Part shown: positions 8,605 to 51,432 of the stretch, piece by piece
Layout of the letters: every line of letters starts with the position of its first letter
Position numbering within the stretch: the first letter of the stretch is position 1
Assembly (NCBI GenBank): GCA_965222225.1
Contig: CBDCTK010000002.1
Span: 3,424,001 to 3,488,000, forward strand
DNA from: Candidatus Poribacteria bacterium
Lineage (GTDB): Bacteria; Poribacteria; WGA-4E; JAJDTR01
Reading direction: 5' to 3'
DNA length: 64,000 bases
The notes under the pieces: model-generated
The model's database searches: none
What the model was told of the DNA's origin: nothing
Seen by the model: the letters and a program-made list of their open reading frames with translations, nothing else
Translations under genes and position numbers: made by a program

Positions 8605-8664
8605 GTAGGAGCGATCAAAGGAATGAATAATGACTGCGATAGAGATCCCTCTCCGAATCGCGAC
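8605..8664 (+). repeat. GTAG REP-like palindrome interrupted by a GA-hairpin unit (8614-8649)
   Basis: GTAGGAGCG[unit]TCTCCGAATCGCGAC; uninterrupted copy at 51408-51432. Confidence 0.9.
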
Positions 8665-8842
8665 CATGGGTTTATAGCAGCGCAGTTCATTGCGCGTCGC
8701 TTGGTGCTTCACTTACCTATAGATCGCAATATGTGTAAATGTGAAGGTAGATGATTATAAGAATGCTGGACATATCCACGACGACGTCGGAAATCGGAAG
8801 TAGCATTTTCCTCCAATCCACAGAAATCCTAACAAAGACTAT

Positions 8843-10018
8843 ATGAACACTGTACGCGTTGGCATCGTCGGGTTGGGGCTTGTTGCTGCCTCACACTTGA
8901 AAGGCTACGGGTGCCATCCACATGCCCAAGTCGTTGCCATCTGCGATCTTGAGGCGGCAAGAGCAGATCGTTTTGCGTCGGAACACGGAATTGAGGATGT
9001 CTATACGTCGTATGAGGAGATGTTGGCAAAAGCCCAAATCAACACGGTTGATATCGCCACCCCGACCTTTCTACACCCATCAATGACCCGCCAAGCCGCC
9101 GAAGCCGGAATGCATGTCCACTGCGAGAAACCCTTCTGCCGGAGTGTGGGCGAAGGCCTTGAAGCCTGCGAGGCTGTACACCGTAGCGGGGTCAAGCTAG
9201 TTGTCGGTGAGACGTATGTCTTTATCGCCTCCCACATGAAGGCTCGTGAACTAATTGATGCCGGAGAGATTGGACGCCCCCTCCAACTACGCCAACGGCA
9301 CGGTGCTTGGTTCGAGCGTGAAAGAGAAGTGGTTGGAGAAATCCCCGAAGCCCGAAACTGGCGCGTCAATGGCGAAAAATCGGGCGGTGGTGACTATCCG
9401 TGGATCTTCGACCATGCCGTGCATTTCTTCGCCACAGCCGAATACCTCATGGGAGATACCCGGATTGCCGAAATCTCTGCCGTCACCGGTACCTGTCGAA
9501 CGGATTCGAACGGAGGCGGTGCTGCCCACGATCCTTATTCGATCCCCGATGTCGATATTCCCATCATCACGTGGAAGTATGAGGATACTGATTGCCAGGG
9601 GCTTTGGATGCGAGCTGAACGGCTGAACGGCAAATACGACTACATGCACGGCTTCAGCACGACGGTCATCGGTGAGCGCGGTATGATTGAGGTGCTGGGG
9701 GAGGGCGGTCACAATCTGTTGTGGAACGGCGAGCAGCAGCATCTGCTTTTGCATCGCGAAGGCAAAGAAACCCGCTCCTTCCGCTTTGACGAGGGAGGCG
9801 ATGATGTTTGGCAATCTGATATCAGCTACTACAGCCGCGGACATATTAACCAAGTCCACCATCTTATCGACTGTGTCCACCATGATACTTCACCCCGTTA
9901 TTCCGGGGAGGATGGTGTACATGCCGTACGCTGCACCTTAGCCGCAATACGCTCCGCTCGCGAAAGCCGCCCCATCGCCGTAGAGGACATCGCTCCAAGC
10001 TACACCGCCTACTCCTAG
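8843..10018 (+). CDS. Gfo/Idh/MocA family oxidoreductase
   Basis: GIVGLG, DIATPTFLH, CEKP, DHAVH. Confidence 0.92.
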   Translation: MNTVRVGIVGLGLVAASHLKGYGCHPHAQVVAICDLEAARADRFASEHGIEDVYTSYEEMLAKAQINTVDIATPTFLHPSMTRQAAEAGMHVHCEKPFCRSVGEGLEACEAVHRSGVKLVVGETYVFIASHMKARELIDAGEIGRPLQLRQRHGAWFEREREVVGEIPEARNWRVNGEKSGGGDYPWIFDHAVHFFATAEYLMGDTRIAEISAVTGTCRTDSNGGGAAHDPYSIPDVDIPIITWKYEDTDCQGLWMRAERLNGKYDYMHGFSTTVIGERGMIEVLGEGGHNLLWNGEQQHLLLHREGKETRSFRFDEGGDDVWQSDISYYSRGHINQVHHLIDCVHHDTSPRYSGEDGVHAVRCTLAAIRSARESRPIAVEDIAPSYTAYS

Positions 10019-10088
10019 GTCTATTTGCCTTGAAGATTAGAACTTACCCATTCGGTAATGAGACGATGACCATTTTAGAGGTATCGGT

Positions 10089-11372
10089 ATGAACATCACC
10101 CAATTCTCAATCGAAGAGGTACGCTGTTTGGCCGAACGCCAAAATTTTGAGATTCGCCCCTTGACGTTCTTGGTCGGCGAAAACAGCACCGGCAAAACAA
10201 CAGCATTGGGGTGTTTCCAAGCATTGGCAAACTGTTTTACTGAGGGGGTAGTGGATTTTAATCGTTCCCCGTATTCAATGGGGAATTTTGAGGATGTTGT
10301 TAGAAATAGCAGGAAAAAAGGAAAGACTTTCAAACTTGGGTTTAATTTTGAACACGGAAAGGAAAACGTCGAATGGATCCTTGAATTCGTTGAGCAGAAG
10401 GGGAAACTTGAACCTGCTGTCGATGCGGCGTCACTGAGATTCAGTGATGGTAAAATCGTTTGCATTCCGGATTTTGGACTGGAGCTGGATACACATGTAG
10501 CCGACTTTGATGGAGAAAAAAATCAGTATCATATTGTTCATGGCTATGATTTGGTGAGTGAATTTCCGCCTTCTGCTTTTCTTCGCTATATTATGTCTGG
10601 AGCCGAATCTGAAGACGAGAAGGCTTTACAAAAGTATTTGAAGACAAAGCCTACGGCTCTATGGCGCGATAAACCTATACTCGTGTTTAGTATCGCGCCT
10701 ATTCGATCGCACCCAAAACAGTCCTATAATGCGACAGAGGTATCTGATGACCCTGAGGGGAGCGATGTACCGATGCAGTTGATGGAGAGAAAAACGACTA
10801 AAGAAAAGGAATGGGAGGCCTTGAAGCAGCAGTTGGTCAAATTTGGGAAGAGTTCGGGACTGTTTCAGAACATAGAGATTGTAAATCTAAGGTCACCCGA
10901 GGCTTCATTCCAACTAAGAATCAAGGTGAGGGGGCCCAACGCCAGTATCATTGATGTCGGCTACGGCATTAGTCAAATTCTGCCGATTCTGGTGCAGATT
11001 CTTGACCCGCCGAGTTCTCGTGGACCCGTAACAGAGATGCCCTTCTTCCTACTACAACAGCCTGAAATCCATTTGCATCCCAAAGCACAAGCCGAACTTT
11101 CTACTCTAATAGCGAAATTGGCGGGCGAGCATAAGAGGGCATTCATCGTTGAAACACATAGCGACTACATGATTGACCGCGCACGGATCGAAATCAGGAA
11201 AGGCACTATTCGTCCCGAGGATGTATCATTGATATATTTGGAGCCAAAGGGACGAGTTGTCAAGGTACACAATATCAGTTTTGACAAGACTGGAGATATG
11301 ATTTCCATACCGAATTCGTATCGAGAATTCTTCATGAAGGAAGTTACCCACCTCATGGGTTTTGAGGGCTAA
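10089..11372 (+). CDS. ABC-type ATPase (AAA_15/AAA_21, DUF3696-like C-terminus)
   Basis: Walker A GENSTGKT, VGYGISQ signature, QQPEIHLHP, VETHS. Confidence 0.85.
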   Translation: MNITQFSIEEVRCLAERQNFEIRPLTFLVGENSTGKTTALGCFQALANCFTEGVVDFNRSPYSMGNFEDVVRNSRKKGKTFKLGFNFEHGKENVEWILEFVEQKGKLEPAVDAASLRFSDGKIVCIPDFGLELDTHVADFDGEKNQYHIVHGYDLVSEFPPSAFLRYIMSGAESEDEKALQKYLKTKPTALWRDKPILVFSIAPIRSHPKQSYNATEVSDDPEGSDVPMQLMERKTTKEKEWEALKQQLVKFGKSSGLFQNIEIVNLRSPEASFQLRIKVRGPNASIIDVGYGISQILPILVQILDPPSSRGPVTEMPFFLLQQPEIHLHPKAQAELSTLIAKLAGEHKRAFIVETHSDYMIDRARIEIRKGTIRPEDVSLIYLEPKGRVVKVHNISFDKTGDMISIPNSYREFFMKEVTHLMGFEG

Positions 11373-11374
11373 CT

Positions 11375-11799
11375 ATGTGTATTATTTTGGATGCCAATAT
11401 GTTGAGCAGATTCAAGAAACGCGCCGATGAGGACATAAAGCCTGTGTGGGACTGGGTATATAACAGAAATGGAAAGATAGCTTACTCTACCACTGAGAAG
11501 TTTAAAGAAGAATGGACAAAGGGAGGAGGAGACAATGTGCTGAAAGAACTGCAAACGAATAAAAAACTCAAACCAGTGTCGGCTCAAGATGTATTAGAGA
11601 ACAAAACGAACTGGAGGGACAAATAAAATCAAATGACCCGCATATTATCGCGTTAGCCATCGTTGCAAACGTAAAGGTATTAGTTTCCGAAGACGGAACA
11701 TTGATAAACGACTTTACCAATCGCAATCTGGTGGTTCGAGGCAGAGTCTATCGGAGGGCGGAACATGCGCATTTACTGACTAGCGTTCGTTGTCCTTAA
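11375..11799 (+). pseudogene. PIN-domain protein with a single-base frameshift near 11600
   Basis: MCIILDAN...; the shifted frame continues QNELEGQIKSNDPHIIALAIVANVKVLVSED...CP*; adding one A gives 141 aa. Confidence 0.75.
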
Positions 11800-11852: not shown

Positions 11853-14540
11853 ATGGCACTACACCCAAACTTCCCTCAGTCCCCGCACGCAATTAGCGAC
11901 CCCTCGGTGCGCTGGTTCCCAGCCGACGAAGAACTGCGGGACACCGGCTACGGAAAACTCATTCCCCCACTCGTCCACAAAATCCGCGAAAAGGTCAAAA
12001 CGTGGCGAGAGGCCGGCTACGGAGAAGCTGCCGAAACCAGCAAATCCCTTCTCAACTGGTGGTTTAACACTCCCCATCTCATGGAAGGCGCCGATGGCGA
12101 AACCAGCGGATTCCAATACTACTTCGCCCAGAGAGAGGCGTTGGAGACCGTAATCTACCTGTACGATGTCATTAGGGTACAGGACAAATACGACTTAATG
12201 CGATTTGACAGTTCAGGCGCAATCTCAACCGGCATGTTTGATGAAGATTGGCGCCGGTTCGTGCTGAAGATGGCAACCGGCACCGGCAAAACAAAGGTGA
12301 TGGGCCTTGTCGTCGCTTGGAGTTTCTTTCACAAACTCTACGAACCCGACTCCGACCTGTCGCGCAACTTTCTGGTCATCGCTCCCAACATCATTGTGCT
12401 TGACCGTATCTATCACGATTTTCAAGGGCTACGCGTTTTCTTTGGCGACCCCGTGTTGCCCGACAACGGTTTTGACGGTCACAACTGGCGTGACGATTTC
12501 CAACTGACCCTGCATCGACAGGACGAAGTGCGCGTCTCCCGTGCCACCGGCAACATCTTTCTTACCAATATCCATCGGGTCTATTCTAGCGACCAAGCCC
12601 CGCCGTCCCCCGATGACGAAAACACGATGGACTACTTTCTCGGCAAACGACCCACGGGGGCAACCACGGATTCAAAGGTAGACGTAGGGGATATTGTCCG
12701 GGAGGTGGACGAACTCATGGTACTGAACGATGAAGCGCATCATATCCATGACCCGAGATTAGCATGGTTCAAATCCATTGAGGACATTCATAACCGCCTA
12801 CTGCAGAAAGGCGGCAAGCTATCGTTGCAAGTAGATGTCACCGCCACGCCCAAACACAACAACGGAGCGATCTTTGTCCAGACGGTGGCGGATTATCCGC
12901 TCGTGGAAGCCATCTCCCAAAATGTTGTCAAACACCCCGTGCTGCCCGATGCGCCGAGTCGAGCCAAGTTGGAGGAGCGGCAAAGCGCGAAGTACACCGA
13001 GAAATATGCGGACTACCTCGAACTTGGCGTCATCGAGTGGCGCAAAGCCTATGCGGAACATGAAAAACTGGGTAAGAAAGCCATTCTATTTGTAATGACC
13101 GACGATACCCGAAACTGCGATGAGGTCGCCGAATATCTCGAAAGCCGTTATCCCGAACTGAAAGATGCCGTCTTGGTGATTCACACACAGAGGAATGGCG
13201 AAATTTCTGAGGCAACTTCGGGCAAGAAGAAAGAGGAGTTGGGCGAACTGCGTAAACAGGCGAATGAAATTGATTCGATGGGGAGCCCCTACAAGGCGAT
13301 CGTATCGGTGCTGATGCTCAAGGAGGGATGGGATGTCAGGAATGTGACCACCATTGTCGGCTTACGCGCCTACTCCGCCAAGAGCAACATCCTGCCGGAA
13401 CAGACCTTGGGACGCGGGCTGCGCCGCATGTACGGCGAGGAAGTGAAGGAGTCAGTCAGCGTCATCGGCACCAACGCTTTCATGGAATTTGTCGAGTCTA
13501 TCCAAGCGGAAGGAGTTGAATTGGAACGCCAAGCCATGGGCGAGGGCACTGGCCCCAAAACACCGCTGGTGATTGAAGTGGACAAAGACAACCCCAGCAA
13601 AGACATTGACGCTCTAGATATCAGTATTCCTAAACTAACCGGGCGTGTTTATCGGGAATACAAGAATCTGTCCGAACTTGATGTGACGCGCTTCGATTTT
13701 ACCCCTGTGACCTATCGGGAGTTTAGCGAAGAAGAGCAACGGGAGATTGTTTTTAAGGACATGACGACGGGTGAGACGACGCATACCACACAGATGGATA
13801 GTGCCGGCATCGCGGATTATCGGAGTGTGATTGCCTACTTCGCACAGACTATCATGAAAGAGTTACGACTGGTCGGTGGCTACGACGCCCTATACCCCAA
13901 GGTACAAAGTTTCATTGAGAGCCACTTGTTCGGCAGATCGGTGGCGTTGGAAGACCCAAATACCTTACGCAATCTGTCAGAGGTTGCGGCAACAAAAACC
14001 GTATTCGATACCTTCAAGCGAGCGATTAACGACCTCGCAGTTCGGGACAAGGGTGACACAAAGATTAGCGATACTATCAAGCTGCGAAGTACGCGCCCCT
14101 TCGTGGTCAAAGACCAGCGGTACGTAGTGTCGAAAAAGTCCGTGTTCAACAGAATCACGGGCGATAATCAACTAGAACGCGACTTCGCCACTTTCTTGGA
14201 AAACTGCCCCGATGTCCTTTCCTACGCCAAGAACTACTTCGCGGTAAATTTCAAGCTTGATTATGTCAACGCCGATGGTGATATTTCCAACTACTACCCG
14301 GATTTCATAGTTAAACTCGCAGATGGCAGTGTAATCATCGCCGAGACAAAAGGTAGAGAAGATACCGATGTGGCACCAAAAATGCGCAGACTCGCCCAGT
14401 GGTGCGAAGATGTCAACAAAATTCACCACGAAGTTTCTTATGACTTTGTCTACGTTGACGAGGACAGCTTTCGGACGTACAACCCACACACATTTCAACA
14501 ACTGCTGGAGGGATTCACCGAATACAAAACCCGCGACTGA
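11853..14540 (+). CDS. res: Type III restriction enzyme Res subunit (SF2 helicase + PD-(D/E)XK nuclease)
   Basis: MATGTGKT, DEAH, TATP, LKEGWDV, QTLGRGLR, YYPDF..AETKG. Confidence 0.9.
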   Translation: MALHPNFPQSPHAISDPSVRWFPADEELRDTGYGKLIPPLVHKIREKVKTWREAGYGEAAETSKSLLNWWFNTPHLMEGADGETSGFQYYFAQREALETVIYLYDVIRVQDKYDLMRFDSSGAISTGMFDEDWRRFVLKMATGTGKTKVMGLVVAWSFFHKLYEPDSDLSRNFLVIAPNIIVLDRIYHDFQGLRVFFGDPVLPDNGFDGHNWRDDFQLTLHRQDEVRVSRATGNIFLTNIHRVYSSDQAPPSPDDENTMDYFLGKRPTGATTDSKVDVGDIVREVDELMVLNDEAHHIHDPRLAWFKSIEDIHNRLLQKGGKLSLQVDVTATPKHNNGAIFVQTVADYPLVEAISQNVVKHPVLPDAPSRAKLEERQSAKYTEKYADYLELGVIEWRKAYAEHEKLGKKAILFVMTDDTRNCDEVAEYLESRYPELKDAVLVIHTQRNGEISEATSGKKKEELGELRKQANEIDSMGSPYKAIVSVLMLKEGWDVRNVTTIVGLRAYSAKSNILPEQTLGRGLRRMYGEEVKESVSVIGTNAFMEFVESIQAEGVELERQAMGEGTGPKTPLVIEVDKDNPSKDIDALDISIPKLTGRVYREYKNLSELDVTRFDFTPVTYREFSEEEQREIVFKDMTTGETTHTTQMDSAGIADYRSVIAYFAQTIMKELRLVGGYDALYPKVQSFIESHLFGRSVALEDPNTLRNLSEVAATKTVFDTFKRAINDLAVRDKGDTKISDTIKLRSTRPFVVKDQRYVVSKKSVFNRITGDNQLERDFATFLENCPDVLSYAKNYFAVNFKLDYVNADGDISNYYPDFIVKLADGSVIIAETKGREDTDVAPKMRRLAQWCEDVNKIHHEVSYDFVYVDEDSFRTYNPHTFQQLLEGFTEYKTRD

Positions 14541-14683
14541 ATCCTGTTTATAGGACTTACGCATTTCGGTTTGTAGTTGCCCGAATCTGTAACTGTTTAG
14601 TTGAGTTCATAGAAGTGAGAAAAGGGGCCGCATGTTGTAGAGTACGCACCTCGCAGCAAACGTGTCGGCGTTAGGTCTGGTTC

Positions 14684-14705
14684 GTAGTAGTGCAATTCAT
14701 TGCAC
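14684..14705 (+). repeat. GTAG REP-like palindrome
   Basis: GTAGTA GTGCAAT TC ATTGCAC; related GCGCAGTTCATTGCGC near 8679. Confidence 0.65.
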
Positions 14706-14772
14706 GTCCCAAGCAGGCATGTAATATCCCGATTCATCTAGTTCTGTCAACCGCTAGCGCAACAAGCATATT

Positions 14773-14808
14773 AATCCGTGCAATCCGCGTAATCCATTTA
14801 ATCCGCGA
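14773..14808. repeat. AATCC 9-nt-period tandem repeat, 4 units
   Basis: AATCCGTGC AATCCGCGT AATCCATTT AATCCGCGA. Confidence 0.7.
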
Positions 14809-14893
14809 TTCAGACAGTGTTTGCGTAAATCCTAGTTTGTATTAAAATGTGGCTTTCCCGACTGCTTGGCTGCGAGTGCTTGCGTTTCTTAGA

Positions 14894-14922
14894 TTGACAG
14901 CGTAACACATGTATAGTATAAT
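14894..14922 (+). promoter_or_regulatory. Perfect-consensus sigma70 promoter
   Basis: TTGACA-17 nt-TATAAT, 76 nt upstream of the antitoxin ATG. Confidence 0.75.
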
Positions 14923-14998
14923 TTGACAGGAACATGAGTTTATTGCCAAAATCATAATTATACGCTTTCTCCGTAAGTCCCGGATAATAGAGGAACCG

Positions 14999-15283
14999 AT
15001 GAATCATACAAATATGCCACAGACTGATTCAATTCAAGAACTCGCTCATTTCTGGGACACACATGACTTAACGGATGTCGAGGACGAACTTGAAGAAGTG
15101 AGTGCCCCGGTTTTTGAACGTAAAACTATGGTCATTGTTCGCTTAGAAGTTGCCCTTCGTTTAGAACCCGAAGAATCTGAGGTTGTCCAAGCGCTTGCCA
15201 ATTCGCGTGGAATCTCTCCTGCGAATCTGATTCGGGAATGGGTAATCGAACGCATTGAGGCATCGTCAGAACCGACAACTTAA
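14999..15283 (+). CDS. CopG/BrnA-type antitoxin (orphan)
   Basis: ELAHFWDTHDLTD motif and C-terminal RHH-like LANSRGISPANLIREWVIE. Confidence 0.75.
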   Translation: MNHTNMPQTDSIQELAHFWDTHDLTDVEDELEEVSAPVFERKTMVIVRLEVALRLEPEESEVVQALANSRGISPANLIREWVIERIEASSEPTT

Positions 15284-15417
15284 CGTTTGTGACAATCAGA
15301 TGTTAATCCGCTGTTGCTAGATGGCACGAATCTGCGTTATATTATTTTGAACCTACCGGTGTGTGATACCGCGACAACTATGCCGGTACAATTGAATTTT
15401 AGTTTAAGAAGGATACT

Positions 15418-15885
15418 ATGAATATAGAATCGTATTTAACCGATAGAGTTGACGACCAGATAAAATACTTCGACCTGAACGCCATTCGGAACCAGAGAAT
15501 ATACAGGTTTTTGAGGATGACCGCAATCTCGTGCAATGTTCTCACCGCCTTGGCAATCGCGTTGACATTCGCTGCGCCAGCGTTATACAAGGTATATGTC
15601 GGGCTTGCGGCATTGGGGCTCACGCTGATTGTCCTTGCCACATACCAGATCGAAGAGTTCTACAATTTCGGCGCCAAGTGGCAAAAGTTCCGTATAGTTG
15701 GCGAACTGGTAAAGTCTGAAAAGTACATATTTTTGAATGGCGCGGGGGTGTATTCCTCCGGTGATATGGAGCAGCGGAAACGGTTATTCGTCAAGAAGGT
15801 TGAGGACATCTTTCGCGGTACAGATATGTCATACTTTTCATTGATGGTAGAGCCGGGCAAGGGACTGGAAAGGCGCTCGTCATAG
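15418..15885 (+). CDS. DUF4231 / SLATT-like two-TM protein
   Basis: YLTDRVDDQIKYFD, two hydrophobic helices, WQKFR..ELVKSEKY. Confidence 0.8.
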   Translation: MNIESYLTDRVDDQIKYFDLNAIRNQRIYRFLRMTAISCNVLTALAIALTFAAPALYKVYVGLAALGLTLIVLATYQIEEFYNFGAKWQKFRIVGELVKSEKYIFLNGAGVYSSGDMEQRKRLFVKKVEDIFRGTDMSYFSLMVEPGKGLERRSS

Positions 15886-15926
15886 TGTCAAGCAGCATAA
15901 GATGCTAAGAAGATTCTGTATGCTTT

Positions 15927-16028
15927 GAAACCGATCAAGCGACCGAATAGGATCAAACGAGTGAATAACGAGTGCGATAGTGATTCCCGCGCGATAGAAA
16001 CCCCTTTTTTTCCTGAAAACTCGGTTTC
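15927..16028 (+). repeat. GAAACCGAG-type palindrome holding nested GA-hairpin units (outer 15934-16004, inner 15952-15988)
   Basis: GAAACCG[...]TTTTTTTCCTGAAAACTCGGTTTC; clean palindrome at 35869. Confidence 0.88.
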
Positions 16029-16207
16029 TGCAAGCCGTCATTCCCGTGGGATGCGATCGGCAATCGTCAAATTCCTATCCCATTTATCTTCTTCTCAGTC
16101 CAAATTGAGAAAAAACGAATTCGAAAAGCACCATGTCTTAACTGATTACTGCCTTTACGATGCTGCCCACGCGTCGCAATACAATCTAAAATAAACAAAA
16201 TATCACC

Positions 16208-24443: not shown

Positions 24444-24461
24444 ATTGTACTACTTAAATCC

Positions 24462-24482: not shown

Positions 24483-24505
24483 AGCCTTTGTAAGTGTAAG
24501 CGGCA

Positions 24506-24604
24506 ATCGAGCGAAAGAATAATGAGCGATCAACTGAGTGGTTAACGAACGCGATAGGAGATCTTGGTAGAGTTCCAACAGAGATCGCAAGGCGATGAAA
24601 TCCC
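24506..24604 (+). repeat. Nested GA-hairpin units (inner 24529-24565) plus suffix fragments
   Basis: ATCGAGCGAAAGAATAATGAGCG[ATCAACTGAGTGGTTAACGAACGCGATAGGAGATCTT]GGTAGAGTTCC... Confidence 0.82.
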
Positions 24605-26348: not shown

Positions 26349-26420
26349 ATCAAGGGAGTGAATAACGACCGATCAACTAACTGGACAAGGAAGGCGATAG
26401 TAAATCCCGATAGAGATCCC
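26349..26420 (+). repeat. Nested GA-hairpin units (inner 26372-26408) inside a CGGGG...CCCCG palindrome
   Basis: ATCAAGGGAGTGAATAACGACCG[ATCAACTAACTGGACAAGGAAGGCGATAGTAAATCCC]GATAGAGATCCC. Confidence 0.9.
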
Positions 26421-28365: not shown

Positions 28366-28435
28366 ATCAACTGAGTGGATAACGAAGGAGCAACTGACCG
28401 ATAGGGAAGGCGGTAGAGATCTCATAGAAATTCCC
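28366..28435 (+). repeat. Nested GA-hairpin units (inner 28389-28423)
   Basis: ATCAACTGAGTGGATAACGAAGG[AGCAACTGACCGATAGGGAAGGCGGTAGAGATCTC]ATAGAAATTCCC. Confidence 0.88.
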
Positions 28436-32348: not shown

Positions 32349-32467
32349 ATCAAACGAACGAATAGTGAGTGCGATAGCAATCTTTGATAACGAAGGATCA
32401 AGGGATTGGATAATGACCGCGATAGAGTTCTCATAGAAAATTCCGTAGTGACTGCGATTGGAATCTT
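32349..32467 (+). repeat. GA-hairpin compound array (full unit, then nested pair with inner 32397-32432, then a suffix)
   Basis: Follows GTAGGG; two full units and three fragments. Confidence 0.88.
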
Positions 32468-35868: not shown

Positions 35869-35900
35869 GAAACCGAGTTTCTTCGAAGAAACTCGGTTTC
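35869..35900. repeat. Perfect 32-bp palindrome (uninterrupted host-type element, possible terminator)
   Basis: GAAACCGAGTTTCTTC GAAGAAACTCGGTTTC. Confidence 0.85.
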
Positions 35901-35991
35901 CTTATTCCTTGCACGGTCAAAATGGGCGGGCTATCGAGACGTATTCCGCCACTTTCTGGCAAAATCAAGTAGTCAAAAATTCAATCGCTCG

Positions 35992-37056: not shown

Positions 37057-37191
37057 GTTTTCCCCCTTTATATATTGCAGCCTACAAACCCGTGTGAAGT
37101 TCAGCGAACGTTCAATACTACGTTGTCCGGCCATCAAGGATGATGCCGATTGACACCAAATAGTCAAATTTATCTTAGGAGTTCCGTAAAC

Positions 37192-38064: not shown

Positions 38065-38122
38065 TTCACCTTTACTAATTCCAAGAAAACAGTGCTTTAT
38101 TTAACCTAAAGTTGCCACCTTT

Positions 38123-38181
38123 GTAGCACAAGGGATCTCTATCGCACTCGCTATTTGCTCGCTTGATCTGTTAGATTGTGC
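38123..38181 (-). repeat. GTAG palindrome interrupted by a GA-hairpin unit on the minus strand (38132-38167)
   Basis: GTAGCACAA[unit, reverse complement]CTGTTAGATTGTGC; removing it restores GCACAATCT GTT AGATTGTGC. Confidence 0.9.
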
Positions 38182-38311
38182 TTGTGATGCGCAAACTGAC
38201 AGTTTGCGCCAGTAGCAACTTGGGTTAATTATGAAGAGAGAGTTAGGATGGGAAGGTGGAGGCATGGGAAAATAAGATACCCATTCTCCACACAATTGAA
38301 GGTGTTAAAAT

Positions 38312-39175: not shown

Positions 39176-39316
39176 AAAATACCTCCTAATTTTTTTGAAC
39201 CGTGGACATCGGGCGATTTTCCCTAATCCACGGATGAGTTAATCAAAATACGTCGCACGTGGTAGCGTTACTACCTCGTTTGACATATAGCGAATCCGAT
39301 ACATGAGATTCACACC

Positions 39317-39345
39317 ATTCTACTGACTTTAGTCTTTCATGTCAA
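39317..39345 (-). promoter_or_regulatory. Putative sigma70 promoter
   Basis: Minus strand TTGACA-17 nt-TAGAAT. Confidence 0.55.
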
Positions 39346-39456
39346 CGAAAAAACTAAGCCGCAGTTTCCGCTTCACCAAATTGACATCTCCCACCATCAC
39401 CTTAGCCGCTTGGTAGATGAAATGGTATGAACGAGCCCAATCTATGTGAGAGCTTT

Positions 39457-40776: not shown

Positions 40777-40933
40777 GGTAATCACCTTTCTCATTTAGCA
40801 AAATTGCAACTCAAAACAACAGCTTGCGATTCAACTGATTTTATCACATCAATCTACAGAATGTCGCTCATCAATCCCCAAGATTCGCGCTATTCCGAGA
40901 ATTTATCCCGCTTTTGTTTGAGTCCCATTTGAG

Positions 40934-43123: not shown

Positions 43124-43246
43124 TTTTCCCTCCCGAAATCTTTCTGCAAATCCAAGTCGCTTCGTTTACTGTGTTTTTACAATTTCCACTCGGGCTACCA
43201 ACAACCATCTACGCAAGTATGAGTCCACTTATACCATCCCATCTAA

Positions 43247-43275
43247 AGTATATCATAATACTCCTGCGGTGTCAA
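43247..43275 (-). promoter_or_regulatory. Putative sigma70 promoter for DUF1549/DUF1501
   Basis: Minus strand TTGACA-17 nt-TATACT with extended TG. Confidence 0.6.
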
Positions 43276-43333
43276 CACCTGACAAGCAAGAAATTTCCTT
43301 TAATTAACCTAACCCAAGTTGCTATCCATTCCT

Positions 43334-43391
43334 GTAGGTCGGGATCAAGCGACTGAAAAAGGAGCGCGATAGAAATCCCTTCTAGCCCGAC
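43334..43391 (+). repeat. GTAG palindrome interrupted by a GA-hairpin unit (43344-43379)
   Basis: GTAGGTCGGG[unit]TTCTAGCCCGAC. Confidence 0.9.
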
Positions 43392-43560
43392 CCGCAAATA
43401 TGCCATGGATTGGCAATTTACTCCAAGCAGTGATTGGCTCGATTCAACTCACATTCTCCCGGTATGCAACATTTTCTATAAGTAACAACTTGGGGTAATT
43501 ATGTGATTTGTGATGTTTGCTTATGATGAGAATTTGACATCGCTGTTACTGCGGACGTCG

Positions 43561-43641
43561 GTAGCAGCGATAAACTGAGCGAATAGATTGAGCGAGCGAA
43601 CGAATAATGAGGGCGATAGAGATTCCTCTCCGGATCGCGAC
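43561..43641 (+). repeat. GTAG palindrome interrupted by a prefix plus a GA-hairpin unit (43591-43626)
   Basis: GTAGCAGCG[...]TCTCCGGATCGCGAC. Confidence 0.82.
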
Positions 43642-43716
43642 CTACAGGTTTCTAGCAGCGAATTTCGATCGTCATATCGAAGATGGAATCCCCTCTTTGC
43701 ACGTCCGGTAGGGTAT

Positions 43717-43767
43717 TCATTTAACGATATGCTGTCATTTAAGGATATACTGTTTAAGGATATACTG
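43717..43767 (+). repeat. Three tandem 15-18 nt direct repeats upstream of the polymerase promoter
   Basis: TCATTTAACGATATGCTG TCATTTAAGGATATACTG TTTAAGGATATACTG. Confidence 0.8.
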
Positions 43768-43837
43768 GCTGAAAATTTCGATTTTTGTAGAAACGGGCAA
43801 TAAATTGCGCTACCACGAACTTTTTTTCAATTTAGGC

Positions 43838-43866
43838 TTGACATGCTTACGGAGAGAATATACACT
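43838..43866 (+). promoter_or_regulatory. Putative sigma70 promoter of the polymerase gene
   Basis: TTGACA-17 nt-TACACT, overlapped by the inverted repeat CTTAA-6-TTAAG. Confidence 0.6.
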
Positions 43867-43949
43867 TAATGTGTGTTAAGTTTATTTGAATGGGATAATC
43901 TGCGCTGAGAAACCCCTTTCCCCCTACGAAAGGGCTTTAAAGCACGACA

Positions 43950-46052
43950 ATGTATCCATCCACTAATATGAACCCCTCAACCGAATTGGCACAGCGGTTA
44001 ACAGACTGCTCCTCAGGCTGGATAGAAGCCATTGATACTGCCATAGTCCGAGGGACTGCCGAGCCTATTCTACTTGAAGCCACACAATGCTGGCGAGCCG
44101 GGGCGTACGAACACGCTGATTTGCTTGTGGCAATGGGCGAAACGGTAGATCACACCGTCGTCACCGAGAAAGAGACGTTGGCATCGGTCCTTATGCCTCT
44201 TGCGGATGCTGATGTCGTTGCGATTGATACGGAAACGTATGCCCCTTCTGAAGTCCGTACTAGGGCAGAATGTGCGGAATTTGAATTTTCGCACCTAAAG
44301 TCTATGCTTGCACTCGCTAGAGAAACAGTTAGGCTGGCGACAACACAGGCACAAAAGCGGGCGGCGAAAGCCATGTGTGATGCGACTAAAGATCAACTCA
44401 AAGCGGCGAAGGCGAGGCTCAAAAACGCGAAGACATCACTCAAAGAGGCGGGTTTGGATCCGCATCAATCAAGAATCCGGCTGATTCAACTAGTGGCGAA
44501 AAACCAACCCGTGATCGTGGTTGATCTTGATGCCTTTGATAGTGTGAGTGAATTGCAACCACTTCAATGGGTGTTGATGAACGATGCCGTGAAAGTATTT
44601 CACAATGCGAATTTTGACATAAAAATGTTGTGGTCAAGCGGTTTCAATGTGAACGGTCAGATTTTCGACACAATGCTCGCGGCGAGGTTGCTCAGTCCGT
44701 CTGGGCGTGTCACTTTAACCGAAGTTGCCCGCACATATCTTGATATATCGCTGCCTAAAGGAGCGCAGACGAGCGACTGGAGCGGTGATTTGACTGATTC
44801 GCAACTGCTTTACGCCGCCCACGATGCACGGATACTCCTACGTCTGGGAGAATGTTTGAAATCGCGGCTCGCCGATGATGCCCTCACCGAAATTGCAAAG
44901 ATTGAGTTCGATTGTGTTCGGGCGACCGCAGAAATGGAATACTCCGGAATGAAGCTGGACACAGATCAAATAAACCGTTATCGGCGTCGCGTCGAAGCTC
45001 GACGGATGGAACTTCAAACAATTTTATACGGTTATCTGGGAGAGATAAACCTCGCCAGTCCAATCCAACTCAAAACTGCACTGGCAAAAGCCGGTGTTGA
45101 GGCGGAAAGTACATCCCGGCGCGCGCTATATTTCCTGGTCGGTAGTCATCCCTGCATTTCAGCCTTATTGACGTACAAGAAGCTATCCACCCTAATAACT
45201 TCATTCTTTAACCCGGTTCCAAGGGCAACCTCTACCCACACAGGACGCGTACACGCAAATTACTGGCAACTCGGCGCAGCGACGGGTCGATTTTCCTGCT
45301 CCGGTCCAAACTTCCAACAGGTGCCTCGCGACTTGGACGTGCGAAGATGCTTTATCGCTGAATCTGGCAAAACATTGGTAATTGCCGATTATTCACAGAT
45401 TGAATTACGTGTCGCAGCGGCAATCAGCACTGATCGAAAAATGATTGAGGCGTACCGCAACGGTGAGGACTTGCATCGACTGACCGCTTCACTCGTGCAA
45501 AATATCTCTCCAGCGAACGTGACTCAAGAACAACGCAATGCTGCCAAGGCGATTAATTTTGGATTGATTTACGGGATGGGCCCAAAAGGCTTGATGTATT
45601 CGGCGAAAGCTAATTACGGTGTCGAGATGAGTTTGGTGGAAGCCGAGACATTCAAAAGACGTTATTTTGAGGCGTATTCCGGAATTCGCGCGTGGCATCG
45701 GAAATCAGGCTGGGAATTGAAATACACCAACAAGCAGAGAACGCTTTGCGGCAGGCGGTTCGTCTGGCGGGAGCCGCCATCGTTTACGGTCTTTGTGAAT
45801 CGGCAGGTGCAGGGGACAGCCGCTGACATCGCAAAAATTGCCCTGGGGCGCCTTCCATTTGCCCTAAAGGGAACGGAAGCAAAAATCATTGCAATGATTC
45901 ATGATGAAATCATTATCGAAGTCCCGGAAGCGAACGCCCACGACGCCGCTGCGATTCTCCAGCGGACGATGGAAACCGCCGCTAACGAAGTCCTGAAAAC
46001 CGTACCCGTTGTTGCAGAAGCCCGAATCGCTGACAACTGGGCGCAAAAGTAA
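43950..46052 (+). CDS. Family A DNA polymerase with 3'-5' exonuclease and no 5' nuclease domain
   Basis: Exo I DTET, Exo II HNANFD, Exo III YAAHD; TGRFSC, motif A DYSQIELR, motif B KAINFGLIYG, motif C HDE. Confidence 0.92.
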   Translation: MYPSTNMNPSTELAQRLTDCSSGWIEAIDTAIVRGTAEPILLEATQCWRAGAYEHADLLVAMGETVDHTVVTEKETLASVLMPLADADVVAIDTETYAPSEVRTRAECAEFEFSHLKSMLALARETVRLATTQAQKRAAKAMCDATKDQLKAAKARLKNAKTSLKEAGLDPHQSRIRLIQLVAKNQPVIVVDLDAFDSVSELQPLQWVLMNDAVKVFHNANFDIKMLWSSGFNVNGQIFDTMLAARLLSPSGRVTLTEVARTYLDISLPKGAQTSDWSGDLTDSQLLYAAHDARILLRLGECLKSRLADDALTEIAKIEFDCVRATAEMEYSGMKLDTDQINRYRRRVEARRMELQTILYGYLGEINLASPIQLKTALAKAGVEAESTSRRALYFLVGSHPCISALLTYKKLSTLITSFFNPVPRATSTHTGRVHANYWQLGAATGRFSCSGPNFQQVPRDLDVRRCFIAESGKTLVIADYSQIELRVAAAISTDRKMIEAYRNGEDLHRLTASLVQNISPANVTQEQRNAAKAINFGLIYGMGPKGLMYSAKANYGVEMSLVEAETFKRRYFEAYSGIRAWHRKSGWELKYTNKQRTLCGRRFVWREPPSFTVFVNRQVQGTAADIAKIALGRLPFALKGTEAKIIAMIHDEIIIEVPEANAHDAAAILQRTMETAANEVLKTVPVVAEARIADNWAQK

Positions 46053-46181: not shown

Positions 46182-46238
46182 GTAGGAGCGATCTCCGAAT
46201 CGATCAACCGAACGAATAGTGAGGGCGATAGCTTTTCT
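46182..46238 (+). repeat. GTAG palindrome truncated by a GA-hairpin unit (from 46203)
   Basis: GTAGGAGCGATCTCCGAATCG then ATCAA CC GA AC GAATA GT GA GG GCGATAG. Confidence 0.85.
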
Positions 46239-46363: not shown

Positions 46364-47749
46364 ATGATAGACACAACCTATCTCCTCAACGACAAACAGA
46401 TGCGGGATTTCATCGTTAACGGGTATGTGATTGTCAAGACGGATCTGCCACGGGATTTTCACGATGAGATTTACAAAGCCACAAACACAGTGTTTGAAAA
46501 GGAGGGCAATCCGGGCAACAACCTTTTGCCTCGCATTCCCGAAATTCAGCGTGTGCTCGAAGACCAGACCGTCCGTGGCGCGTTGACGAGTCTCTTAGGC
46601 GCGGATTACTATATGCAGCCCCATCGCCACCCCCATATTAACCCGCCAAAAAGCAAGGGGCAAAACCTGCATCAGGATGGCGGCAAACGCTGGTCGCATC
46701 GGACGCGTCGTTTGCTGGTCTTCTACTATCCACAGGACACGCCGGAAGAGTTGGGCCCCACCAGTATTGTTCCGGGGAGCCACTACTATTGTACCCCTGA
46801 AGGCGGTAAGATTCGGGGCGAAGTTCCACTTTCCGGAGAATCCGGCACCGTGACCATCGCGAACTACGACCTTTGGCATAGGGCTATGCCCAATCGAACC
46901 GACATGCCTCGCTACATGATGAAATTCCTTTCCGCCCGCATGTCGGAACCCGATTCACCTTCATGGAATACTGACCAGCCGGACTGGATGAGCGACACAC
47001 CAATTGGCAACCCCGAGCATCAGACATTGTTCAAGCATGTTTGGGATTGGCACCACGGCAAAACTACTTCAAATACTGAAGCCAACGGTGCTCCCGGTGA
47101 CGCGATAATAAGCAAACTGATAGCAACGCTGTACGATGGCGGCGAGTCGGTATGCCTCCGCGCTGCATATCAACTAGCCGCATTCGGCGTGCTAGCTATT
47201 CCCGACTTGGTAGCGCTGTTGGAGGAAGAATCAGAAGTCGTCCGTCGAAATGTGTGCTATGCCTTGAGTGCCATCGGTGCGCCCGCCGTCGCCCCCCTGA
47301 TTCACGCCCTGGAAGCTAAGAATTGGTGGACCAGTGATAGCGCGGCGGAAGTGCTGGGAGATATGGGACTTGATGCGCAGGAAGCCGTGCCGGCGCTGAT
47401 GCGTGCGGTGCGAGACGAATCGGATGCTGTCCGCTCTCATGCTGCGGAGGCATTGGGAACAACAGGGCAATTATCCGCCGCCGCTGTCCCGGCGCTGATT
47501 ACCGCACTGCAGGATGCGGAAGGATCCGTCCGTCGCAACGCGGTGTTCGCGTTGGCTCAGCTGGGACCGCACGCTAGGGATGCCGTACACGCACTACAGA
47601 ATGTCCTCTTCGACGAAAACCGATATGTGCGTGGAGACGCTGTGAACGCGCTTCATCGTATTGGCACAAAGGAGGCGTCGGATGTGTTGCTTCGCTATCT
47701 AACCATGTTCCGCTGGTGCCCGTTGACCACCCGAGAGAGTACGCATTAA
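46364..47749 (+). CDS. PhyH family dioxygenase fused to HEAT repeats
   Basis: LHQD, YYPQDTP, VPGSH, LWHR; VRRN..AL / AVPAL HEAT repeats. Confidence 0.9.
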   Translation: MIDTTYLLNDKQMRDFIVNGYVIVKTDLPRDFHDEIYKATNTVFEKEGNPGNNLLPRIPEIQRVLEDQTVRGALTSLLGADYYMQPHRHPHINPPKSKGQNLHQDGGKRWSHRTRRLLVFYYPQDTPEELGPTSIVPGSHYYCTPEGGKIRGEVPLSGESGTVTIANYDLWHRAMPNRTDMPRYMMKFLSARMSEPDSPSWNTDQPDWMSDTPIGNPEHQTLFKHVWDWHHGKTTSNTEANGAPGDAIISKLIATLYDGGESVCLRAAYQLAAFGVLAIPDLVALLEEESEVVRRNVCYALSAIGAPAVAPLIHALEAKNWWTSDSAAEVLGDMGLDAQEAVPALMRAVRDESDAVRSHAAEALGTTGQLSAAAVPALITALQDAEGSVRRNAVFALAQLGPHARDAVHALQNVLFDENRYVRGDAVNALHRIGTKEASDVLLRYLTMFRWCPLTTRESTH

Positions 47750-47756
47750 AAAATAA

Positions 47757-49005
47757 CGGAATTAGTAGCTTGTAGCTTTTAGACTGACGACAAACATAAA
47801 ACTTGGTACCCTGTCGTAAATCTTTTCGTCACACGTAGATGTCCATAGTGACTATTCTTCTCGTAGGAGTTTGCTATGGACATTTTGAATCTTATGAAAG
47901 AGTTTCCAAATCAAGAATCTTGTCTCAGATTTATAGAGGAAAAACGTTGGAAGGACGGTGTTTGCTGTATCCACTGTGGCAGTGAAAAAGTTGGACGCAA
48001 GAACAAAAACGACATTACTACTGGTTGGAATTGCTACGATTGTGAATCTAGCTTTTCGGCTACAGCAGGAACCATCTTCCATGGTACCAAGATACCTCTC
48101 CAGAAATGGTTTTTGGCTATCTCAATTCTTTCCAATGCCAAGAAAAGCATATCGAGTTGTCAGCTTGCTCGTGACTTGGACATGAATCAAAAGTCCGCTT
48201 GGTATATGGCAATGCGCCTCCGTGAGAAAATGAGTGATAGTGATGAATTGCTGAAAGGGATAGTTGAAGCGGACGAAACCTATGTCGGCGGCAAACCCAG
48301 AGCAAAATCTAAGAGAGGTAGAGGCACAAATAAATCTCCCGTCATCGGCGTAGTCGAGAGAGGCGGTCGGGTGGTTGCTAAATTCATGAAGGTTCTATCT
48401 GGTGAAAATATCAGAGAATTCATCCTTAGCAATGTCTCACCCGATGAGTCTATTCTTATGACTGATGAATTTCGCTCTTACAATAGTCTGGACGAAGATA
48501 TCGAAAGACATGTTATCCATCACCAAGAGAGATATGTTTCTGAGGACGGCGTAACTCACACCAACACCATCGAGTCGTTTTGGGCTTGTGTCAAGAGGTC
48601 ATTCTACGGAACGCATCATCACTACAGCAAGAAGTGGCTGCCACTGTATATCATGGAGTCTTGCTGGAAATATAATCGCAGAAAAGATGATGAGATTTTC
48701 ATAAGATTTTTTGATGAATGCTTCACCTGAGCCACATGAATTGTTTGGCTATCGGTATATTCTGTCAACGACAACATCATGGTGTGCTGAAAATCCCATA
48801 GTGTTGGAAATTAAAATCCCGCAGATAACCCGCAATGCTCCCGCGAGCATGTACAAACGCTTGGTCAACATGATATGCCTCCATTTCTCTCTTATAGAGA
48901 TGTATTTTAGTGTGAATCAAGATTCCGAACACTGTCTAAAATGATTGTACATTAAGAAGAGAAAAGCAAGCAAATCGACCAAAAAGCAGTTAACTACTAA
49001 GTCCC
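47757..49005 (+). mobile_element. IS1595-family insertion sequence, 1249 bp
   Basis: IRL CGGAATTAGTAGCTTGTAGCTTTT vs IRR (reverse complement) GGGACTTAGTAGTTAACTGCTTTT, 17/24 match; 8-bp TSD AAAAATAA at 47749-47756 and 49006-49013. Confidence 0.88.
47876..48730 (+). CDS. IS1595 family transposase
   Basis: Zn ribbon CIHC...CYDC, VEADETYVGG, TDE, HTNTIESFW. Confidence 0.95.
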   Translation: MDILNLMKEFPNQESCLRFIEEKRWKDGVCCIHCGSEKVGRKNKNDITTGWNCYDCESSFSATAGTIFHGTKIPLQKWFLAISILSNAKKSISSCQLARDLDMNQKSAWYMAMRLREKMSDSDELLKGIVEADETYVGGKPRAKSKRGRGTNKSPVIGVVERGGRVVAKFMKVLSGENIREFILSNVSPDESILMTDEFRSYNSLDEDIERHVIHHQERYVSEDGVTHTNTIESFWACVKRSFYGTHHHYSKKWLPLYIMESCWKYNRRKDDEIFIRFFDECFT

Positions 49006-49148
49006 AAAAATAATCATCTGATTTAAAGCAAACTTCGGGAACAAATTTTATGTTCTGACACGGCTCACGGCGCTCCGATTCTCCTGCCGCTCCTGCTAGA
49101 TTAACAAATCCAGCAGATATTGAGTTCGAGTCTCCCGCTCCAGAGTAA

Positions 49149-49184
49149 ATCAAACGACTGGACAGGGAGTGCGATAGAGATCCC
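49149..49184 (+). repeat. GA-hairpin unit
   Basis: ATCAA AC GA CT GGACA GG GA GT GCGAT AGAGATCCC. Confidence 0.88.
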
Positions 49185-50365: not shown

Positions 50366-50406
50366 TTGCGGGCATCACACTATTCTATTGAAGAGGGTTT
50401 CCGACG

Positions 50407-51207
50407 ATGATTAATAACGATCAGGTAAAGTTCTTTTGGGAACACGGTTATCTACACATCCCGCAGGTTTTCACGCCCGAAGAAACAGATGAATTGACCA
50501 GCGAACTTGATTGGCTCATTGATAAATGGGCAAATATTACCCCGGGCTGGTCCGGCCCTTGGCGTCGAAAGTACATGGATGCGGAAACCGAGAAAAAATC
50601 CAAACTGATTGCGATGCACGATTTGTCATTCTATTCCGAGGCGTGGATGAAAGCCGTCACCAATCCCGGTCTATGCGATGCGATGGCTGCCCTGCTAGGT
50701 CCCCGTGCAGAACTTCATCATAGTACCATGCACGTCAAACCGCCGGAAACCGGACATCCATTCCCCATGCACCAAGATTGGGCGTTCTACAAGCATCGAG
50801 ATGGTCGCTATGTCGATCTGTTAGCCCACCTTGATGATACCTGTCACGAAAACGGTGAAATCCGCTTCCTTGATGGGTCGCATAAGGGCGGCGCCCTGGA
50901 ACATATCACCCGGAATCCTGACGGTACGACCTGCACGCCGCATCTGCCTACCGACCAATACAAGCTGGAAGATTCTCTCGCTGTCCCCGCCAAACGAGGC
51001 GATGTCGTATGTTTTAGCCTCCATGCCATCCACGGATCCTACATCAACCAAACAGACAAGAACCGTCGTCTCGTGCGGTTCGGATACCGCCATCCTGAGA
51101 ACGAGCAGTTTGAAGGCCAGAGTTTGGGAAGACCGGGTCTGATGGTTCGCGGCAGTCGCAGACGGGGGATTCATCAGGAGTTGTTTACCAACACGGGACC
51201 TAGATGA
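50407..51207 (+). CDS. PhyH family dioxygenase
   Basis: KPP, MHQD, ENGEIRFLDGSH, IHGS..N. Confidence 0.9.
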   Translation: MINNDQVKFFWEHGYLHIPQVFTPEETDELTSELDWLIDKWANITPGWSGPWRRKYMDAETEKKSKLIAMHDLSFYSEAWMKAVTNPGLCDAMAALLGPRAELHHSTMHVKPPETGHPFPMHQDWAFYKHRDGRYVDLLAHLDDTCHENGEIRFLDGSHKGGALEHITRNPDGTTCTPHLPTDQYKLEDSLAVPAKRGDVVCFSLHAIHGSYINQTDKNRRLVRFGYRHPENEQFEGQSLGRPGLMVRGSRRRGIHQELFTNTGPR

Positions 51208-51318
51208 GTTTAACATTTACAGGACAGGTATTGAAGATATTATCATTCTCCCCGTGTTCCGGAATTGTCCTGTTTAGAACTTGCTTCAAATCCATTTTCG
51301 CGTAAAATCATATGCCCT

Positions 51319-51394
51319 GAAACCGATGAAATGAGATCAAGCGAGTGGATAACGAGCGCGATAGAGATCCCTTCTTTCTTCAGAGCTCGGTTTC
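51319..51394 (+). repeat. GAAACCGAG-type palindrome interrupted by a GA-hairpin unit (51336-51371)
   Basis: GAAACCG ATGAAATGAG[unit]TTCTTTCTTCAGAGCTCGGTTTC. Confidence 0.88.
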
Positions 51395-51407
51395 TTCCGC
51401 AATCACT

Positions 51408-51432
51408 GTAGGAGCGATCTCCGAATCGCGAC
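51408..51432 (+). repeat. Uninterrupted GTAG REP-like element
   Basis: GTAGGAGCGATCTCCGAATCGCGAC. Confidence 0.8.

Follow-up and report, generated by a model that had tools for sequence, protein, structure and literature searches.

A 36-nt hairpin unit of Candidatus Poribacteria behaves as a strand-specific mobile element inserted into GTAG-type palindromes

Repetitive extragenic palindromes (REPs) in a 64,000-nt stretch of a Candidatus Poribacteria genome (assembly GCA_965222225.1, contig CBDCTK010000002.1, positions 3,424,001 to 3,488,000; hereafter the window, with positions counted from its first base) are interrupted in several places by copies of one 36-nt unit, which raises the question of what this unit is, by which rule its sites are chosen and which enzyme could have placed it there. 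Here we describe its anatomy and the covariation within its hairpin, the junction rule and its restriction to one strand, paralogous sites with and without the unit, and the distribution of the family. In its behaviour the unit ranks among the smallest known mobile elements, and it is likely to be a discrete mobile element. Our best explanation, in which our confidence is evenly balanced, is that it is a non-autonomous, strand-specific element moved as single-stranded DNA by an HUH enzyme similar to the REP-associated tyrosine transposases (RAYTs) or to that of IS200.

The consensus of the unit reads ATCAA-NNGANNG-RATAR-NGANN-GCGATAGARATCCC. Canonical units were collected from the source genome (5.70 Mb, two contigs) as an exact ATCAA located 22 nt upstream of the 14-nt tail, the latter with up to two mismatches. 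Among 987 genome matches to the tail, 503 had ATCAA at exactly this distance, and these 503 canonical units comprised 406 distinct sequences. Looser counts gave about 1,280 heads and about 1,235 tails, from which a genome share of about 0.8% was calculated. The unit is the commonest repeat of this genome, and all of the top 10-mers (up to 445 copies) derive from it. Both boundaries were sharp, with 1.55 bits of information at position -1 compared with 0.37 at -2 on the 5′ side, and 0.91 bits at the last base of the unit compared with 0.16 just beyond it on the 3′ side. The last three bases were the least conserved part of the tail. Bases -3, -2 and -1 were G, C/G and G in 337, 419 and 464 of the 503 units, respectively. 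Since ATCAA and the tail had been fixed during the collection of copies, the invariance of their columns is partly due to construction. With its G at -1 and two sharp edges, the junction proposed in an initial annotation of the window is consistent across the genome.

Independently, a covariance model (CM) built from 140 distinct copies recovered 15 units from the window (E < 0.01), of which 14 are on the plus strand and one is on the minus strand, and the 14-nt tail with up to three mismatches matched 23 times compared with 5.2 expected (none of 100 shuffles reached 23). All of the sites on which the initial annotation had relied, namely those at 8605, 15927, 38123, 43334, 43561, 46182 and 51319 and the empty ones at 35869 and 51408, read as it had described them. 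Head-to-tail tandem junctions (...CCC/ATCAA) were absent from the assembled genome, and adjacent units showed the spacing of 5 nt that separates the two insertion sites of one host family, REP C.

Empty copies were found for the cited sites, where removal of the unit restores the host palindrome as had been claimed, and genome-wide an empty paralog spanning the junction was detected for 208 of the 503 units. In a strict set of comparisons, anchored by exact 7-mers on both sides (n = 88), 85 units had replaced 1-3 nt of the target, one had replaced none and two showed odd overlaps of 4-5 nt, with no clear case of a target-site duplication among the 88. The replaced bases were CA (22 cases), CG (21), C (15), A (11), CAT (5) and others. 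The 5′ junction was exact, and the variable loss of 1-3 nt fell on the 3′ junction. The description of a discrete insert in unrelated REP-like palindromes, located 3′ of a G, free of duplication and with a small loss of target bases, is supported. Other readings of the junction, either with GATC or ATC as a shared core or with a 35-nt unit followed by a host-derived last C, were rejected, as none of them abolished the target loss in all host families.

The hosts comprise at least seven unrelated repeat families, non-repeat contexts and the unit itself. In REP A the unit lies between GTAGGCGGGG and CTTGCCCCGC in place of CAT, and in REP B between GTAGGGTGGG and CYGCCCACC in place of CA. REP C is entered at two sites, the first between GTAGGGTGCG and CTGCGCACC (CA replaced) and the second between CACTGCG and ACCAGCC (C replaced). 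An A is replaced between GTAGGAGCG and TCTCC... in REP D, a C between GTAGGTCGGG and TTCTAGCCCGAC in REP E, CG between ...GCCCCAGAGGGG and ACAGGT in REP-F, and AG between GAAACCG and TTTT... in the GAAACCG palindromes. Where another unit is the host, insertion mostly occurred after ...G22, with CG replaced in front of ATAGAG. Empty copies outnumbered filled ones in every family from REP A to REP E (filled/total: 21/51 in A, 21/124 in B, 51/198 in C, 34/253 in D and 9/29 in E), and the palindromes are better in the empty forms, which makes insertion into these the economical reading. The palindromes of the type GAAACCGAGTTT...AAACTCGGTTTC, found at 35869-35900 and genome-wide, constitute a high-copy family of their own (core 10-mers about 160 times) with a terminator-type look, which occasionally hosts the unit.

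Longer alignments gave the same picture. Three paralog pairs differed by exactly the unit over 400 nt (u24, 94.5% identity), 356 nt (u311, 97.8%) and 262 nt (u393, 96.2%). Many unit variants were found at one and the same junction: REP A had 18 stem signatures in 28 filled copies (counted with a wider pattern in which the last arm base may also be A), REP B had 19 in 21 and REP D had 30 in 34. Therefore, the junction is a property of the process and not of one ancestral event. Within a host family, independent insertions had lost identical target bases.

The initial annotation had proposed that the element targets hairpin structure. The two strands of a REP palindrome both offer the hexamer with a C after it, but 132 units were found on the strand with GTAG and only 5 on the opposite one, including the window copy at 38132. 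In 111 of the 503 units, covering 32 different hexamers, the distance from the end of RTAG to the junction was exactly 6 nt. Offsets 4, 5 and 7 accounted for 2, 32 and 1 units, respectively, and the cases at offset 5 are ambiguous by one base in REP D. The same 6-nt register was occupied by ATAA in 25 units and by the CCAG of REP-F in 37, and a peak of RTAG at offset 6 was also present in loci of other metagenome-assembled genomes (MAGs) and species (37 of 186). Units nested in or abutting other units had the same orientation in 188 cases and the opposite one in 11-20. Units had also entered the 3′ foot of a hairpin (in REP-F), a 3′ arm (at the second site of REP C) and other units. Taken together, strand bias and register indicate that sequence and strand set the target, not hairpin shape alone, and the structural proposal gave way to a ruler, which fits the strand split, the offset and the foot, arm and nested sites better. 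The rule for insertion is the RTAG-bearing strand, 6 nt downstream, after a G; this strand-specific insertion 6 nt downstream of GTAG or ATAG is what is new here. Judging from the consensus, the ATAR loop of the unit itself would lie 6 nt before G22, its main nesting site, and the ATAG of the tail probably 6-7 nt before its 3′ end.

Of the nine variable positions of the unit, eight are joined in four covarying pairs (5-21, 6-20, 9-17 and 10-16, counting the A of ATCAA as 0) with a mutual information of 0.48-1.2 bits. The resulting hairpin consists of two 2-bp stems with a conserved GA/GA internal loop (G7A8, G18A19) between them and a GRATA cap. In a set of 140 distinct units, of which 9 came from the window and 131 from other MAGs, these positions paired in 95.0% of cases compared with 65.0 ± 1.3% after shuffling (0 of 500 shuffles), the covariation score was 0.972 compared with 0.348, and slid registers paired in 23-60%. 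The 406 distinct units of the source genome gave 95% pairing compared with 61% when shuffled. Non-Watson-Crick cells on the written strand were G-T about 230 times and A-C about 20 times, which argues that this strand folds, or that it mutates while being single-stranded.

With regard to location, 426 of 500 units lay outside crude gene calls that cover 83% of the genome. Their orientation relative to flanking co-directional genes was nearly random (149 with, 123 against), which means that it is not determined by transcription. Orientation followed local GC skew, with 90 units on the plus and 152 on the minus strand where skew was above 0, and 192 and 66, respectively, elsewhere. Empty REPs showed the same bias. 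This shared bias is a hint of strand-specific handling of both units and REPs; the skew itself is patchy. An impression of a two-replichore pattern, given by all-forward lists in some genomes, is not relied upon because the full list of genome G026 has mixed orientation. Along chromosome C2 of the source genome, GC skew changes sign many times, instead of delimiting two replichores, and the orientations of units and empty REPs flip along with it; this reflects either many inversions, plausible given the abundant insertion sequence (IS) copies, or assembly joins.

All 10 genomes of the genus contained the strict pattern, with 107-445 occurrences each. Of the other genomes in the phylum (176 in total), 7 had no more than 6 occurrences and 159 had none; a reversed-pattern control gave no matches. 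The CM revealed a second genus, from another family, in which all four genomes had at least 44-46 matches, and one further genome with 22, with no matches in 100 genomes of the phylum's largest family. The unit family thus fills two genera of Poribacteria and is missing from most of the phylum. All 80 unit-carrying public records listed were MAGs of Candidatus Poribacteria, which are sponge symbionts. Viral contigs gave no match, and the four matches in JGI metagenome contigs all corresponded to one unrelated sequence devoid of the tail.

As for the mechanism, we infer a single-stranded DNA intermediate and an HUH enzyme. The unit is inserted right 3′ of a G, 6 nt downstream of a GTAG/ATAG-type tetranucleotide and on that strand only. 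In GTAG-type REP hairpins, which belong to several unrelated families, this rule directs it to the 5′ shoulder or the apex, and in its own copies to the position after G22, giving rise to same-orientation nesting. Insertion produces no target duplication and removes 1-3 target bases on the 3′ side, and the REP-plus-unit composites are subsequently amplified as wholes. An HUH/Y1 enzyme of the RAYT/IS200 kind would move the single-stranded unit in trans, reading the tetranucleotide as RAYTs read GTAG. For movement as single-stranded DNA by a RAYT- or IS200-like enzyme, taken by itself, our confidence falls somewhat short of even. A more specific version must be considered tentative: a domesticated RAYT, with the unit as its natural cargo, would bind a single-stranded REP and use GTAG/ATAG as a ruler or guide to cut 6 nt downstream in REPs and in the unit's internal ATAGs, and would paste a 35-36-nt hairpin circle or strand.

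Candidate enzymes were found in the same genome, where five Y1_Tnp matches were detected. One of them (locus L130, C2:3080258-3080728) is a 157-aa Y1/HUH gene located between inverted copies of REP C and REP-F, the downstream one of which is filled by a unit; another (locus L132, C2:3088937-3089269) is a Y1 gene with an in-frame TAG between inverted REP D copies. These two REPtron-like loci are 8 kb apart. The link to GTAG-type REPs and RAYTs invoked by the initial annotation is therefore borne out, in that the hosts are such REPs and RAYT-like Y1 genes flanked by them are present. Homologues of the L130 protein were 80-91% identical across several genera, and this 157-aa type was present in all nine other genomes of the genus. 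Published RAYTs cut REPs in single-stranded form, at CT or CA next to the stem-loop, with GTAG guiding the choice of the cleavage site (PMC8266576). This gives a precedent for a strand-specific reaction in which a tetranucleotide is read, but none for losing target bases or for cutting after a G within the stem.

Two other candidates were rejected. A 247-aa Y1 protein (L131) is sporadic, with presence in 5 of the 176 genomes of the phylum and in 2 of the 9 others of the genus. An IS1595-family element, considered as a parent, has ends unlike those of the unit. The window contains a copy of this element (47743-49025), with a 284-aa protein carrying DDE_Tnp_IS1595 and zinc-ribbon domains encoded at 47876-48730, and the genome has at least 30 copies at 99-100% identity, which points to recent activity. 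A search for an autonomous partner revealed no recurrent long insert between head and tail, as heads devoid of a tail mostly run into another unit.

Several observations weigh against the explanation by a RAYT/IS200-like enzyme, or limit it. The 157-aa Y1 protein is present in 105 of the 176 genomes of the phylum, including genera that lack the unit, so it is not specific to the unit, and the same query missed 2 of the 4 genomes of the second unit-rich genus. IS200/IS605 transposition entails no loss of target bases, whereas the unit loses 1-3 (0-2 if its last C is host-derived). The published cleavage by RAYTs at CT or CA takes place outside the stem-loop (PMC8266576), whereas the unit enters after a G inside the stem. 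Mutual information between flank and unit reached at most 0.11 bits (null maximum 0.05), with no visible guide-target pairing, and the residual value is attributable to amplified composites. Folding of the unit as DNA was weak (0 to -1.8 kcal/mol; z-scores of +0.5 and +1.2), and RNA folds of three written-strand units had z-scores from -1.3 to +0.1, so that the case for a structure rests on covariation; together with the weak energy, covariation fits a fold held by a protein better than a free one. One unit variant had 24 of its 28 copies in REP C, often with the same longer flanks, which implies that many copies arose by amplification of the composite and not by insertion of the unit.

Finally, we observed no empty and filled alleles of a single locus, the evidence for movement being given by paralogs and by differences between species. 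When the region 24000-43999 of the window was compared with Logan contigs of four runs, contigs ended at units. Skips of 35-36 nt (26371>26408 and 38130>38166) were dismissed as alleles, since the shorter side matched over only 21-23 nt, which indicates paralogous repeats. In nine other species of the genus, genes were 82-87% identical but spacers were too diverged for a clean unit-only indel; the only element visibly kept in the orthologous spacers was the empty REP at 51408, retained in another species (locus L115), and intergenic regions of these species had units at other places. At 43580-43600, a 21-nt stretch inside a unit was missing in contigs of two other public runs, where the locus equals a canonical 36-nt unit; this difference is strain-level length variation within a unit.

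Among the alternatives, the one that survives best, albeit unlikely in our view, is a repair patch, in which a RAYT or a hairpin nuclease cuts the REP and a filler is copied from another unit by means of G(C/G)G microhomology while target bases are trimmed. It would account for an exact 5′ junction combined with a variable 3′ loss of 1-3 nt, for the G, C/G and G at -3 to -1 as possible shared microhomology, for the low conservation of the last three tail bases and for the failure to find a dedicated enzyme or an autonomous partner. However, the 3′ boundary is sharp and the expected run-on into donor flanks was not seen, independent insertions in one host family lose the same bases, and neither strand specificity nor RTAG-N6 is expected from break repair in a near-perfect palindrome.

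We consider it quite improbable that the unit is not independently mobile but a module of mosaic REP arrays, comparable to the linkers of bacterial interspersed mosaic elements or to BOX boxes, that spreads with composites and short-patch conversion. The one variant with 24 of its 28 copies in REP C, the many REP-F copies with one shared variant and identical long flanks, and the co-orientation of units with their REP hosts are in line with it. Conversely, the same bounded 36-mer occurs in seven or more unrelated families, in non-repeat contexts and in itself; empty copies are more numerous than filled ones in every family; many variants share one junction; and paralogs 94-98% identical differ by exactly the unit.

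To a similarly low degree we credit a different enzyme, such as a recombinase acting on a folded single strand, an IS110-like recombinase or a serine or tyrosine recombinase, whose gene would lie elsewhere or belong to a lost or foreign element. The widespread RAYT does not match the patchy unit (two genera and one further genome), the loss of target bases and a site inside the stem are at odds with published HUH behaviour, and there are known cases of full-size IS elements with REPs as their targets. Nevertheless, no candidate gene for such an enzyme was identified, the abundant IS1595-family element differs in its ends, and the unit was found in no viral contig.

The weakest alternative, a selected structured RNA or protein-binding site (for example a small cis-acting transcript hairpin) that spread secondarily and owes its conservation to a cellular function, is very unlikely: compensatory changes do tolerate G-U-type pairs on one strand only, the RNA minimum-energy fold holds the covarying pairs plus an ATC/GAT helix in 3 of 3 written-strand units and the window is present in metatranscriptome contigs, but orientation relative to genes is near random, Rfam gave no match at the gathering score and only three weak ones at E ≤ 5, none on units, the fold z-scores are not significant, copies nest in and disrupt each other, and RNA contigs break at units and are uninformative on their transcription.

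The copies and empty sites of the window are listed in Table 1.

Table 1. Units, composites and empty host palindromes in the window.
Feature	Position	Strand	Composition	CM score
Unit with extra tail fragments	5748..5783	+	Tail fragments extend to about 5830 (nesting remains)	50.7 bits, E 1.6e-10
Unit	6039..6074	+	Preceded by GTAGTAGTG	54.1 bits
Filled REP D	8605..8664	+	GTAGGAGCG 8605-8613, unit 8614-8649, TCTCCGAATCGCGAC 8650-8664	58.6 bits
GAAACCG...CTCGGTTTC palindrome with nested pair	15927..16028	+	Outer head 15934-15951, inner unit 15952-15987, outer tail to 16004, host 3′ arm to 16028	53.1 bits (inner unit)
Degenerate outer head with inner unit	24506..24565	+	Outer head 24506-24528, inner unit 24529-24565	33.3 bits
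Nested pair	26349..26420	+	Outer head 26349-26371, inner unit 26372-26407, outer tail 26408-26420	37.7 bits
Degenerate head/tail module composite	28366..28423	+		23.9 bits, E 0.0012
Two units between convergent genes	32349..32432	+	Units 32349-32384 and 32397-32432	48.5 and 49.0 bits
Empty palindrome	35869..35900	.	GAAACCGAG...CTCGGTTTC	
Unit on minus strand in REP with GTAG on plus strand (rare opposite-strand case)	38123..38181	-	GTAGCACAA 38123-38131, reverse-complemented unit 38132-38167, CTGTTAGATTGTGC; empty paralog ...TAACAG/A/TTGTGC	55.9 bits
Filled REP E	43334..43391	+	GTAGGTCGGG, unit 43344-43379, TTCTAGCCCGAC; empty counterpart GTAGGTCGGG-C-TTCTAGCCCGACC	56.1 bits
REP D-like copy	43561..43641	+	Unit with 21-nt internal expansion at 43580-43600	
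REP D filled at a second, 3′ site	46182..46238	+	REP D 46182-46202, unit 46203-46238 after ...GAATCG	41.4 bits
Unit	49149..49184	+	About 125 nt downstream of the IS1595-family copy	57.4 bits
Filled GAAACCG palindrome	51319..51393	+	Head fragment, unit 51336-51371, then ...CTCGGTTTC	62.5 bits (best in the window)
Empty REP D	51408..51432	+	GTAGGAGCGATCTCCGAATCGCGAC; one additional A at the junction compared with filled copy at 8605	

Apart from the repeats, the window contains a restriction-modification cluster (11853-18463). One of its proteins, of 895 aa, is a homologue of BPTD_3080-family restriction endonucleases with a score under the curated cut-off; another, of 751 aa, has an adenine-methyltransferase domain. 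A 700-aa bifunctional 3′-5′ exonuclease/DNA polymerase of PRK14975 type, just below the curated cut-off, is encoded at 43950-46052; this gene is syntenic across the genus, and the spacers around it have been remodelled by REPs and units. Positions 38007-39340 had a metatranscriptome word depth of about 1,790 in one run, well above the rest of the 20 kb compared, although this depth is a poor measure of expression; the stretch spans a 287-aa open reading frame on the minus strand (38312-39175).

Concerning known systems, small dispersed repeats (SDR4, SDR5 and SDR6) of Nostocaceae were reportedly described by Elhai et al. in 2008 in Genome Res 18:1484. In later publications, SDR5 is presented as a 21-nt repeat with no known function, located precisely inside HIP1 between its third and fourth bases, GCG/ATCGC (PMC4390886, PMC13756078), and SDRs as being reported only in Nostocaceae (PMC5861425). 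Judged by these descriptions, the SDR family, which is regarded as mobile, is the closest precedent for the unit: both are high-copy repeats of tens of bases, inserted precisely into other short repeats, as empty and filled copies show for the unit, and the unit, like SDR5, follows G(C/G)G and starts with ATC. By the same descriptions, the unit differs in that it belongs to Poribacteria, measures 36 nt instead of 21-27 nt and uses as hosts GTAG-type REPs and itself instead of HIP1, an octamer that occurs 117 times in the source genome.

The unit resembles the REP/REPIN-RAYT systems (REPtron, TnpAREP), in which high-copy intergenic hairpins are handled as single strands and the enzyme reads a GTAG as a guide (PMC8266576); in addition, RAYT-like genes lie here between inverted REPs, and units share the strand bias of REPs. 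By contrast, the unit has no 5′ GTAG, its stem of 4 bp is interrupted, it forms no inverted doublets and it sits inside REPs, and loci L130 and L132 are flanked by REP C/F and REP D, with a unit merely filling one flank copy. With IS200/IS605 elements the unit has in common the absence of target duplication, strand-specific insertion near a short motif and a hairpin conserved as structure, but it has one hairpin instead of one per end and no full-length partner with matching ends, and only the G at -1 is fixed (92%), with RTAG 6 nt away, instead of a directly adjoining tetra- or pentanucleotide. Miniature IS200/IS605 derivatives associated with palindromes, known as PATEs, measure 100 nt or more compared with the 36 nt of the unit. 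A classical DDE miniature inverted-repeat transposable element differs in its terminal inverted repeats and target duplication, both of which are missing from the unit with its ends ATCAA... and ...ATCCC. IS elements that target REPs (IS1397 and others) were reportedly treated by Tobes and Pareja in 2006 (cited in PMC3116915); they share REP palindromes as specific targets but are full-size, protein-coding and duplicate the target, in contrast to the non-coding 36-nt unit. GC clusters and double-hairpin elements of fungal mitochondria are likewise tiny hairpin repeats with a mobility deduced from presence and absence between genomes; they are organellar, differ in sequence and follow other target rules. 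In a literature search over main texts, no such unit was described for Poribacteria among the matches listed, which were one unrelated review and, with a looser pattern, 12 of 5,756, and a broader search for tiny mobile hairpins in bacteria likewise gave none.

There is as yet no agreed account of the spread of REPs and similarly short repeats. In vitro, RAYTs can cut single-stranded REPs and join them again, but to our knowledge the movement of no defined element has been tied to them. The SDRs are the only mobile elements reported at this size, and in the papers of 2015-2026 consulted here that cite them no mechanism was proposed. The unit family offers hundreds of independent junctions, a simple target rule and candidate enzymes in the same genomes, which makes the problem directly testable, and its covarying hairpin shows what the machinery must recognise. 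In these uncultivated sponge symbionts, units also break short-read assemblies. If the unit is indeed a cargo of RAYT, a RAYT would for the first time be seen to integrate a separate element, no smaller transposon would be known to follow a defined target rule, and the SDRs of cyanobacteria would be explained as well.

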